A DNA stretch of 8,577 nucleotides, taken from the NCBI GenBank assembly GCA_048886185.1, contig JBHLKY010000055.1, positions 1 through 8,577 of the forward strand, read 5' to 3'. A program made the position numbers and the translations under genes. This document shows positions 4,730 to 8,577 of this stretch, piece after piece. Each line of letters starts with the position of its first letter. Position 1 is the first letter of the stretch. The notes below the pieces were generated by a model. It was not told the origin of the DNA. It did no database searches and worked only from the letters and a program-made list of their open reading frames with translations. The DNA is from Candidatus Hermodarchaeota archaeon. Its GTDB lineage: Archaea; Asgardarchaeota; Heimdallarchaeia; Hodarchaeales; Hodarchaeaceae.

Positions 4730-5212
4730 CTAATCCTGAGTTTTATCATCCATCTGAGAGGGATATCTTTTTTGAATTAGTTTTTGCCTCTTAATCTCGT
4801 CAGACTTTCGATAATAATAGTTGGAAGTACGTATAGGCCCAAAAGATCGGATACCAACCTTTTCTAGTTTATCAGTTAGATCTTTTGCAGTTTCAGGGGA
4901 AATTCGACCCTCTTTGGCTAGAAAATCAATTATCTCTTGTCCCTCTTTTTCTGTCCTTGCTCTAGCTAAAAAATCATAAATATTTGGTTCATAATTACTA
5001 AAAGGATCTCCGTCCTGAAATGAAGAAGTAGTCGAATCATCTTTTACTTCATCAATTCTTATATTCATCTTCTTATCTATGAGTTCTTTATATAAAGCAG
5101 GAAATTTCTCTCGAATTTCATCGACAGTTATGTTCTGATCAATTTCAATGGCTTTAATTAAATCTCTCTTTTTTTGATCTTGATTAAAGTCATCTAGGGG
5201 ATTTTCATCCAT
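4730..5212 (-). CDS. DUF2095-family (COG4003-like) archaeal protein of unknown function, 160 aa
   Basis: Recognisable blocks EKFPALYKEL and YEPNIYDFLARARTEKEGQEIIDFLAKEGRIS...L...GIRSFG...YY. Starts 20 bp after the stop of the upstream dehydrogenase on the same strand. Confidence 0.8.
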   Translation of the reverse strand: MDENPLDDFNQDQKKRDLIKAIEIDQNITVDEIREKFPALYKELIDKKMNIRIDEVKDDSTTSSFQDGDPFSNYEPNIYDFLARARTEKEGQEIIDFLAKEGRISPETAKDLTDKLEKVGIRSFGPIRTSNYYYRKSDEIKRQKLIQKRYPSQMDDKTQD

Positions 5213-6697: not shown

Positions 6698-7261
6698 ATG
6701 AGTGCTTACAAGTATGTATCCAAATTCTGGAAAGAGAGAAATCAAGAATTTCGTAAATTAAGAATTGCCAGACTGATCGAGTGGAGGCGAGAACCGACTG
6801 TTAATCGAATTGATAATCCGACAAGAGTTGATAGAGCTCGTAAACTTGGTTATCGTAGGAAAAAAGGCTATATCATGGCAAGAGTCCGCGTTCCGCGTGG
6901 GGGCCGTCGAAAAATAAGACCTAGGAGTGGTAGGCGATCTAAAAGAATGGGTGTTAGTAGAATTACACCTAAGAAGTCCAGACAGTGGATCGCAGAAGAA
7001 CGCTGCTGGCGCCATTTCCCTAATCTAGAGGTGCTTAACAGCTACCCTGTACTTGAAGATGGCCTTTTTAGGTGGTTTGAAGTTATTTTGGTGGATCCCT
7101 ACGCCCCTGAAATCATTTCTGATCCAAAAATCAACTGGATTTGTTATAGAAGCAGCCGAGGCCGCGTTTCCCGAGGAAAAACTTCAGCAGGTCAGAAAAG
7201 TCGGGGATTACGGAAGCGAGGAAAAGGAGCTGAACATATCAGACCTTCCTACGATCGTTAA
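6698..7261 (+). CDS. rpl15e: 50S ribosomal protein eL15 (L15e), 187 aa
   Basis: MSAYKY start, WRREPTVNRIDNPTRVDRARKLGY, RVRVPRGGRRKIRP, AEER...PNLEVLNSY, WFEVILVDP, RGKTSAGQKSRGL. Very basic composition. Confidence 0.98.
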   Translation: MSAYKYVSKFWKERNQEFRKLRIARLIEWRREPTVNRIDNPTRVDRARKLGYRRKKGYIMARVRVPRGGRRKIRPRSGRRSKRMGVSRITPKKSRQWIAEERCWRHFPNLEVLNSYPVLEDGLFRWFEVILVDPYAPEIISDPKINWICYRSSRGRVSRGKTSAGQKSRGLRKRGKGAEHIRPSYDR

Positions 7262-7377: not shown

Positions 7378-7384
7378 AATGAGG

Positions 7385-8128
7385 ATGCCTCGTAATTTTG
7401 TTGATTCACTCAATTCTAAAGATGAATCACAGTTATCGGCATGTCTTCATACTGCTAGCTGGCTAGGCTTTAGAGAGATTTGGATTAGCAATCTAACAAA
7501 AGAAGGAAGGAAAATGATCACACAACCTCCCTTCACATCGTTGGTACAAATATACGAACGATTAGATATTGGAAATAACAATGAATCGAAAACTCAAATT
7601 GTATCGTGCCTTCGTCACCAAAGAAGAACAGTCCCTATCATTGCAGTAACATGTCAGACTCCTGAACTCACAGCATGGGCAGCCCAAGACAATCGTGTTG
7701 ATATTTTGAAATTTCCTGTTTTTCAGATTGGAAAATTAATGTCACGATCCATTGCAAATCTAATGATTAAATTTCAAAAGCACTTGGAAATTCAACTTGC
7801 CGAAATATACTCCCTTCCTGAACGGCAACAAATTCCAGCTTTTCGACAGATCCGTTCTGCATTAGATATAGCTTCTCAGAAGAAAGTTCCAATTCTCTTC
7901 ACCTCAGGAAGTAAAAATCTAAGTCAAATACGCTCACCACGAGAACTAGCATCCTTGGGCCAAATGTTGCTTACGAGTTCTGCAATGCCTCTAGATTCAC
8001 TTAGTCTTATTCCACAGCGATTAATCCAAAAGAACCTGATTAAGATCAGTCCAGATTATATCGCACCAGGGGTGTTCAAGATAACGTCCAGTCCAGAATT
8101 ATTAATGAGCGAGAATGAGGAGGAATGA
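7385..8128 (+). CDS. rnp3: Ribonuclease P protein component 3 (Rpp30 homolog, PHP-like barrel). ORF track starts at 7379; 7385 preferred from SD spacing
   Basis: A..LGF near the N-terminus, AAQDNRVDIL, HLEIQL, VPILFTSGS...QIRSPREL motifs. Conserved position between rpl15e and Pop5. Confidence 0.9.
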   Translation: MPRNFVDSLNSKDESQLSACLHTASWLGFREIWISNLTKEGRKMITQPPFTSLVQIYERLDIGNNNESKTQIVSCLRHQRRTVPIIAVTCQTPELTAWAAQDNRVDILKFPVFQIGKLMSRSIANLMIKFQKHLEIQLAEIYSLPERQQIPAFRQIRSALDIASQKKVPILFTSGSKNLSQIRSPRELASLGQMLLTSSAMPLDSLSLIPQRLIQKNLIKISPDYIAPGVFKITSSPELLMSENEEE

Positions 8129-8535
8129 AACTTATGGATGAAAGGAATCGATACATTATTATTCGATTTATCAGTCCTATTCAGCTCCAAGAGAAGGATG
8201 CCTGGTTTATTGTATCATCAGAATTAAAAAGACTTTTTGGTGCATATGGAGCAGCGGAAGTGGGCCTTTTTCTCTCTTATTTTGATGAAAAATCGCAAGG
8301 GGGGATTTTTAGAGCAGCACATAAATCTGTCTGTCGCGTTAGAACGGCGCTTTGTTTTATCCACATAAGACACAATAATCCCCTATTCTTATATTCAGAA
8401 AATGTCAGTGGGTCATTGAAAAAAGCGAAAATCCTATTAACAGGTACAAAACATATAAAACGAGCCCATACTATCCGAAAAATGCTGGAGAACTATTGGG
8501 AAGAAAGCCTTGATGATGACACGAAACTACACTGA
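8125..8535 (+). CDS. rnp2: Ribonuclease P protein component 2 (Pop5/Rpp14 family), 136 aa
   Basis: RNRYIII, LFGAYGAA, GIFRAAH...VRTAL and VSGSLKKAK motifs. ATGA overlap with the rnp3 stop (8125-8128) and GAGGAGG at 8117-8123. Confidence 0.92.
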   Translation: MKLMDERNRYIIIRFISPIQLQEKDAWFIVSSELKRLFGAYGAAEVGLFLSYFDEKSQGGIFRAAHKSVCRVRTALCFIHIRHNNPLFLYSENVSGSLKKAKILLTGTKHIKRAHTIRKMLENYWEESLDDDTKLH

Positions 8536-8571
8536 AGTAGATGTTGAAACCGTCCCAGTCTGAGAGGCTTT
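8504..8571 (+). ncRNA. Box C/D 2'-O-methylation guide sRNA. D guide predicted to target the LSU rRNA P-loop G equivalent to E. coli G2251
   Basis: C box AUGAUGA 8513-8519; guide CACGAAACUACA 8520-8531; D' CUGA 8532-8535; C' AUGUUGA 8541-8547 (one mismatch); guide AACCGUCCCAGU 8548-8559; D CUGA 8560-8563. Terminal stem AAAGCCU 8504-8510 / AGGCUUU 8565-8571 plus U8511-G8564 wobble. The D guide pairs over 11 nt (one G-U) with the conserved rRNA ACUGGGGCGGU. Confidence 0.9.
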
Positions 8572-8577
8572 ATTAAG

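Follow-up and report, generated by a model that had tools for sequence, protein, structure and literature searches.

The window analyzed here is the whole of contig C55 (8,577 nucleotides) from a metagenome-assembled genome of 4.84 Mb, 96% complete. Its host belongs to the Hodarchaeota/Heimdallarchaeota. It is, therefore, an Asgard archaeon, which is the condition on which the original prediction had let the evolutionary interest of this locus depend. Toward the end of the window lie the genes rpl15e, rnp3, and rnp2, followed by a box C/D sRNA that contains the final 32 nucleotides of the rnp2 reading frame. Table 1 collects the coordinates.

Table 1. Genes and sRNA elements at the rnp2 locus (positions in the window)
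Feature	Position	Strand	Remark
rpl15e	6698-7261		precedes rnp2, as does rnp3
rnp3 (p30)	7379-8128		precedes rnp2
rnp2 (RNase P protein Pop5/Rpp14)	8125-8535	+	Pfam PF01900, E 2.7e-12
complete box C/D sRNA, 68 nt	8504-8571	+	sequence read; covariance model R1 80.7 bits, E 5e-15
terminal stem, 5' strand, AAAGCCUU	8504-8511	+	complementary to 8564-8571
box C, AUGAUGA	8513-8519	+	invariant, 18/18 orthologs
D' guide, CACGAAACUACA, 12 nt	8520-8531	+	orphan; overlaps rnp2 coding sequence
box D', CUGA	8532-8535	+	contains rnp2 stop UGA
spacer, D' to C'	8536-8540	+	
box C', AUGUUGA	8541-8547	+	one deviation from RUGAUGA
D guide, AACCGUCCCAGU, 12 nt	8548-8559	+	8549-8559 complementary to LSU 2257-2247
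box D, CUGA	8560-8563	+	invariant, 18/18 orthologs
terminal stem, 3' strand, GAGGCUUU	8564-8571	+	covaries with 8504-8511

The element is very probably a genuine box C/D sRNA. Its four boxes are read in canonical order where they had been predicted, the single deviation being in box C', where U replaces A at one k-loop position. Direct reading also confirms the predicted terminal stem, whose eight base pairs comprise seven Watson-Crick pairs and the pair U8511-G8564. The minimum free energy fold of the sRNA retains this stem. The sequence is consistent with a k-turn in which G8512-A8513-U8514 form the bulge, followed by G8515.A8563, A8516.G8562, U8517.U8561, G8518-C8560, and A8519-U8559; this assignment, taken over from the original prediction, agrees with the positions of the boxes. 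Two guides of 12 nucleotides had likewise been proposed. Both spacers are indeed exactly 12 nucleotides long, but only the D guide survives as a targeting guide, the D' guide having no detectable target. A strict scan of the entire 4.84-Mb genome for this architecture together with the stem returned two distinct loci, versus none in a reversed-sequence control.

The sRNA lies at the very end of its contig. The first 72 nucleotides of a second contig (C66) are the same as the last 72 of the window (8506-8577). This shared segment is an overlap left by the assembler; thus, the sRNA exists once, and the locus runs on into C66. The sRNA spans a contig break in two other genomes of the genus also (C87/C114 in G005 and C341/C61 in G009), and such breaks may reflect strain-level variation just downstream. 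Downstream as well, about half of the genus carries a motif that consists of UAUUAAGG, 15-25 nucleotides, and then GAGUAG or GCAGACACCUUU. It is found at about positions 60-110 of C66 in the host (G000) and at the orthologous positions in loci L018-L025. Within it, AAGG...CCUU could pair; Rfam found nothing at the C66 segment.

The sRNA is shared throughout the genus. Orthologs of Pop5 are found in 20 of its 22 genomes, and in all 20 where rnp2 is assembled, that gene either runs into the sRNA or ends ahead of it. The two genomes without the sRNA (71% and 86% complete) are also without the rnp2 locus. Eighteen copies from the genus were aligned (alignment A1). Here, mean pairwise identity is 1.00 in box C, in box D, and in the 9-nucleotide core of the D guide (CCGUCCCAG, invariant in 18/18), versus 0.44 in the spacer and 0.55-0.57 in the strands of the stem. 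The consensus of box C' in the genus is R-U-G-N-N-G-A, 12 nucleotides ahead of box D.

The strands of the stem vary together. Across the 18 species, 89 of the 90 cells for the inner five pairs hold a pair, and four of these five positions show compensatory changes; over the full terminal stem, such changes are seen at seven of the eight pairs. Overall, 83% of the stem cells are paired, versus 27-47% when the partner strand is slid. The stem scores 0.398 for covariation, versus 0.195 for shuffles, none of 500 of which reached 0.398. An alignment of orthologous rnp2 3' ends had been suggested as a check on the original prediction, and it came out in favor of that prediction, with boxes and guide invariant and the stem covarying over 18 copies.

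The same alignment shows how protein gene and RNA gene share their sequence. Read in frame, box C is part of the acidic Asp-Asp-Asp tail of Pop5. The rnp2 stop codon is the UGA of box D' in six of the 18 species (the window included), directly follows box C in five, is a UGA within box C in three, lies 14 nucleotides upstream of the sRNA in three, and falls elsewhere within the sRNA in one. Thus, the boxes of the sRNA provide the stop codon of rnp2 in nine of 18 species. The stop occupies five positions in all, and the D guide is downstream of it in every species. This means that protein coding cannot explain why the guide is invariant. It means further that the constrained unit is the RNA, with the reading frame ending wherever the RNA offers a stop. 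The rnp2 locus thus offers a clear case of a protein gene whose 3' end is constrained by an RNA gene.

Target assignment requires, of course, a target sequence. The LSU and SSU rRNAs have no assembly in the host genome, and the target was read from congeners. Numbering follows the annotated rrlH gene of E. coli (NC_000913), where ACUGGGGCGGU occupies 2247-2257, as had been stated; BLAST, queried with the archaeal P-loop region, had given no match in E. coli genomes. A same-genus LSU fragment (L009), which shares 84-92% identity with the LSU pieces that two other members of the genus carry on long contigs, reads ACUGGGGCGGUA at the P-loop site. With this fragment, the guide nucleotides from U8559 to A8549 pair with LSU 2247 to 2257 in 11 contiguous pairs, ten Watson-Crick and one G-U (G2253-U8553), with A8548 mismatched. 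The original prediction had named this pairing, including the wobble at U8553, and had asked for no fewer than about nine pairs; the 11 found were measured on the LSU of a congener. C8555 is the fifth nucleotide upstream of box D, and it stands opposite G2251, whose equivalent is the second G of CUGGGGCGG in the P-loop. The numbering on rrlH bears out this register, which the N+5 rule (established knowledge, restated in PMC7994747) makes the one for methylation.

Another candidate for the target was rejected. This was a full-length LSU sequence (L002, on G001:C57) whose helix 80 reads GGGUGGGGCGCC. It shares only 64-71% identity with the LSU pieces of the genus, whose identity to one another is 80-92%, and probably entered that bin as a foreign contig.

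How unusual is the match? The D guide scores 10.5 at the P-loop, and nowhere else in 5.6 kb of genus rRNA does it score above 6.5. When the D guide is shuffled, 78 of 5000 shuffled guides match as well somewhere in that same 5.6 kb. By itself, therefore, the match between guide and target is only moderately unusual, because a C-rich guide here meets a G-rich rRNA.

The D' guide behaves differently. Its best match to genus LSU and SSU rRNA is 6 bp, which 4827 of 5000 shuffles equal, and it has no target in RNase P RNA or in the 11 tRNAs detected by aragorn, a list that probably misses intron-containing tRNAs and that makes the tRNA scan incomplete. Within the genus, its sequence varies among species (mean pairwise identity 0.53). 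The D' guides of some congeners match the LSU site UYUGGUAUGCAG over 7.5-8 bp, and these matches were judged too weak. The D' guide has probably drifted and is an orphan that directs no modification. In Pyrobaculum, 61% of the guides that are overlapped in sense have no predicted target, and the boxes of sRNAs often provide the stop codon of a reading frame (PMC6009581). An orphan D' guide overlapped by a reading frame fits this rule. As a side matter, two C/D sRNAs of family f7 (L144 and L145) have a D' guide, AUGAUACCAGCA, that shares the core AUACCAG with several D' guides of the genus; their D guide, CGCCGUCACUCU, is not a P-loop guide.

The host encodes the proteins that a C/D RNP uses. 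The genes for fibrillarin (PF01269, 263 bits) and Nop5 (PF01798, 224 bits), on whose presence the original prediction depended, stand side by side on contig C8 (59474-61007), and the gene for L7Ae (PF01248, 92 bits) is on C3 (9149-9397). No RlmB-type gene was found in the host genome. The sole gene of the SpoU family is of the TrmJ type, with 201.6 bits against a TrmJ/YjtD model whose cut-off is 167, and 43.9 bits against an RlmB model whose cut-off is 160; thus, no stand-alone enzyme for Gm2251 was found. The genome also holds, outside the window, a second unannotated C/D sRNA with two guides (C14:67244-67297, minus strand), the other locus returned by the strict scan. Each of these, AACCUGACAAGG and CUUAUAGUUACU, is complementary in 11 of 11 Watson-Crick pairs to the LSU of the same genus, at sites 32 nucleotides apart. 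The second sRNA serves as an internal positive control and shows that the host uses C/D guides of such length on LSU rRNA.

From these features, a path for the sRNA can be proposed. Most likely, it would be transcribed with the rnp3-rnp2 message and then excised. By the mechanism of the family, L7Ae would first occupy the C/D k-turn and the C'/D' motif, and Nop5 and fibrillarin would follow. The D guide would pair with the P-loop of the LSU rRNA (helix 80, E. coli 2247-2257), and fibrillarin would then methylate the 2'-oxygen of the G2251 equivalent. G2251 is the universally conserved P-loop nucleotide that pairs with C75 of the tRNA in the P site.

Natural history has delivered guides to this site elsewhere in the Archaea. 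The supplementary table of Dennis et al. (2015; PMC4644070) lists sR107 of Thermoproteus tenax and sR36 of Pyrobaculum calidifontis, whose D guides end in GCCGUCCCAGU-CUGA, and their text predicts methylation at the equivalent of E. coli G2251 for three archaea. An exact pattern searched across GTDB found the guide in compact C/D sRNAs of Pyrobaculum oguniense, Thermoproteus, Nitrososphaerales, and one Undinarchaeota genome; bacterial matches were also returned, and these are without C/D architecture. The U opposite G2253 was considered as a shared derived character and set aside, as the GTDB-wide pattern forced a U at this position and hence provides no evidence. With a pattern that allows either C or U here, families f1 and f3 have U, and families f2 and f4 have C.

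Within the Heimdallarchaeia, the scan asked for guide and box D only (CCGYCCCAGNCUGA), and its reversed-pattern controls returned zero. The combination is present in 19 of 21 genomes of f1 (the family of the host genus), 2 of 2 of f2 (in the same order), 20 of 31 of f3, 1 of 12 of f4, 0 of 12 of f5, and 0 of 3 of f7. The P-loop guide occupies the D position in f1 and f2, and the D' position in f3 and f4. In the latter pair of families, it belongs to a conserved dual-guide sRNA (L188-L195) with the stem GUGGC/GCCAC, whose D guide (UCUCACGACGAA or similar) has its complement in the helix-93 region, around E. coli 2591-2600. The P-loop and the helix-93 region both contact the CCA end of the tRNA in the P site. 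Copies of this dual-guide sRNA in genus g7 have a TATA-like run upstream.

Other Asgard families, searched under a strict pattern, gave P-loop guides in 40 of 400 genomes, versus 4 of 400 in controls. In one of these (family f20, genus g47), a DUF2095 gene is closely followed by a P-loop-guide sRNA whose guide reads UUGCCCCAGA (L182 and L183). The window has a DUF2095 gene as well (4730-5212, minus strand), which is not adjacent to its sRNA. The linkage of a P-loop sRNA to rnp2 was not found outside the genus, the copies in f2 and f20 having other contexts. Taken together, guides to the same site on unrelated scaffolds in other archaeal lineages suggest that the P-loop is the selected target.

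Rfam assigns the sRNA to no family at the gathering level. Its best similarity is to RF01275, sR22 (21.6 bits, E 0.66, gathering threshold 40), and the Pyrococcus C/D families sR22, sR43, and sR12 appear only below threshold. Searches of the literature in full text turned up no account of C/D sRNAs from Asgard archaea.

Other explanations for these patterns can, of course, be proposed. Box motifs are short, and GAUGAUGA encodes Asp-Asp-Asp besides, so that a chance arrangement at the end of a coding sequence might mimic an sRNA. Chance does not, however, deliver invariant boxes, an invariant guide, and a covarying stem at 20 of 20 orthologous loci, nor does it hold the whole element together in three species where the stop codon is upstream of it. 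On these grounds, chance is effectively refuted; the reversed-genome control, too, gave no matches at all. A different proposal accepts the C/D sRNA as real but gives it another RNA (a tRNA or an mRNA) as its physiological target, making the P-loop match incidental. A C-rich guide does match G-rich RNA fairly well, with shuffles averaging 7.9, and the D guide pairs over eight contiguous positions (one of them G-U) with the anticodon arm of tRNA-Pro(GGG), CUGGGGCG. The gene for this tRNA is in the host genome (contig 8, 153731-153804), and the match to it may be chance or may mark a possible secondary target. Set against the 10.5 of the P-loop, other rRNA sites reach 6.5 or less and tRNA sites 7.5. 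Further, it would be hard to see why unrelated scaffolds in other archaeal lineages should carry guides for this one site, and in an identical register, were the P-loop match incidental. We regard this proposal as highly improbable.

Slightly less improbable, though still quite unlikely, is the view that the element is a conserved RNA that methylates nothing. Here, a k-turn RNA that binds L7Ae, or a pre-rRNA chaperone, would act by binding the P-loop or by regulating or stabilizing the 3' end of the rnp2 mRNA. This would account for a conserved stem and conserved boxes within the 3' end of an mRNA, and it would tolerate the imperfect box C' of the window; chaperone-like roles, and possible effects of overlapping sRNAs on mRNAs, are discussed in PMC6009581. 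The part of the element that does not vary is, however, exactly the 9-11 nucleotides complementary to the P-loop, placed in the N+5 register and with the canonical spacing of 12 nucleotides. Further, the host encodes both fibrillarin and Nop5, and the same guide is found in sRNAs of the Thermoproteales that were published as methylation guides. Thus, it is very probably a genuine Gm2251 guide sRNA that occupies 8504-8571 of the window. The central claim of the original prediction, a functional box C/D guide that selects G2251 of the P-loop, is strongly supported by comparative evidence in the form of conservation, covariation, and complementarity. An unannotated, well-supported C/D sRNA gene is in this way added to an Asgard genome.

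What this guide says about eukaryotes is more subtle. Gm2251 is present in the 23S rRNA of E. coli, in eukaryotic cytoplasmic rRNA, and in yeast mitochondrial rRNA. In yeast, snR67 guides Gm2619, the equivalent of E. coli Gm2251 (PMC11121408). In humans, G4196 of the 28S rRNA is assigned to SNORD31, with neither the site nor SNORD31 conserved in mouse (PMC5388417); a table in PMC11542601 gives the equivalence of G4196 to Gm2251. The original prediction had cited both snoRNAs correctly. The same 2024 plant review (PMC11542601) equates Gm1950 of H. marismortui with E. coli Gm2251; in Grosjean et al. (2008; PMC2584109), position 1950 corresponds to E. coli 1909, and the table has no H. marismortui counterpart of Gm2251.

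The original prediction had also presented the sRNA as a candidate archaeal counterpart of a eukaryotic core snoRNA. In the functional sense, this holds. Orthology between Asgard archaea and eukaryotes, however, does not follow from it, as the guide is dictated by a universal target. The special link was overstated, with the guide being found also in Thermoproteales, Nitrososphaerales, and Undinarchaeota, and with scaffolds differing even within the Heimdallarchaeia. A target that is universal and scaffolds that are non-homologous within a single archaeal class mean that orthology is not to be inferred from the guide. When the window was scanned with Rfam, the families of SNORD31 and snR67 gave no match up to an E of 10. 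Orthology of the window sRNA with snR67 and SNORD31 is possible. A bolder version holds that a eukaryotic ancestor related to the Heimdallarchaeia already made the P-loop Gm under RNA guidance, and that the rnp2-linked sRNA, or its relatives in f3 and f4, share descent with snR67 and SNORD31. We consider this rather doubtful. Were it true, one guide RNA would have been inherited vertically, in place of convergence on a universally conserved target, and the P-loop Gm would be among the few guide specificities that predate eukaryotes. The Gm2251 guide is, in any case, widespread in the Heimdallarchaeia, and no class of archaea is closer to eukaryotes. Such a distribution accords with the idea that eukaryotes descend from an archaeon that already made Gm2251 by the snoRNP route rather than by an RlmB-type enzyme.

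Several known systems deliver the same product. RlmB, the bacterial stand-alone methyltransferase of the SPOUT class, makes Gm2251 in the P-loop as a protein-only enzyme. The snoRNAs snR67 and SNORD31 direct the methylation of the same rRNA nucleotide as that predicted for the window sRNA, using the same RNP chemistry, but they are longer, as eukaryotic snoRNAs are, and have a different biogenesis. Closest are the compact archaeal box C/D sRNAs sR36 and sR107. Their guides are the same as that of the window over 10-11 nucleotides, including the U opposite G2253; the identity covers GCCGUCCCAGU/ACCGUCCCAGU plus CUGA, with G2251 selected in the same N+5 register. The D guide of the window is complementary to LSU 2247-2256, the pairing that characterizes this group. 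Unlike the window sRNA, however, sR36 and sR107 come from hyperthermophiles of the Thermoproteota, have another D' guide and another genomic context, and do not overlap rnp2. Only the boxes and the guide can be aligned between them, and in RNAs of about 50 nucleotides, homology of the scaffold looks the same as convergence of the guide. The consensus of sR22 ends its D guide in CCGUUCCAGU-CUGA, one C-to-U change apart from the guide of the window.

Thus, the novelty that the original prediction saw in a P-loop guide was too great, as an identical guide is present in sRNAs of the Thermoproteales and archaeal targeting of G2251 had been predicted in 2015. Guide, target, and the phenomenon of overlap with a reading frame are all already published for the Thermoproteales, and the understanding of C/D RNPs is unchanged. 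The Pyrobaculum sRNAs of Lui et al. (2018; PMC6009581) also overlap the 3' ends of reading frames in sense, also supply the stop codon from a box, and also leave the overlapped guide without a target. The locus described here differs from those in having rnp2 as its partner, and in having kept that linkage across a whole Asgard genus.
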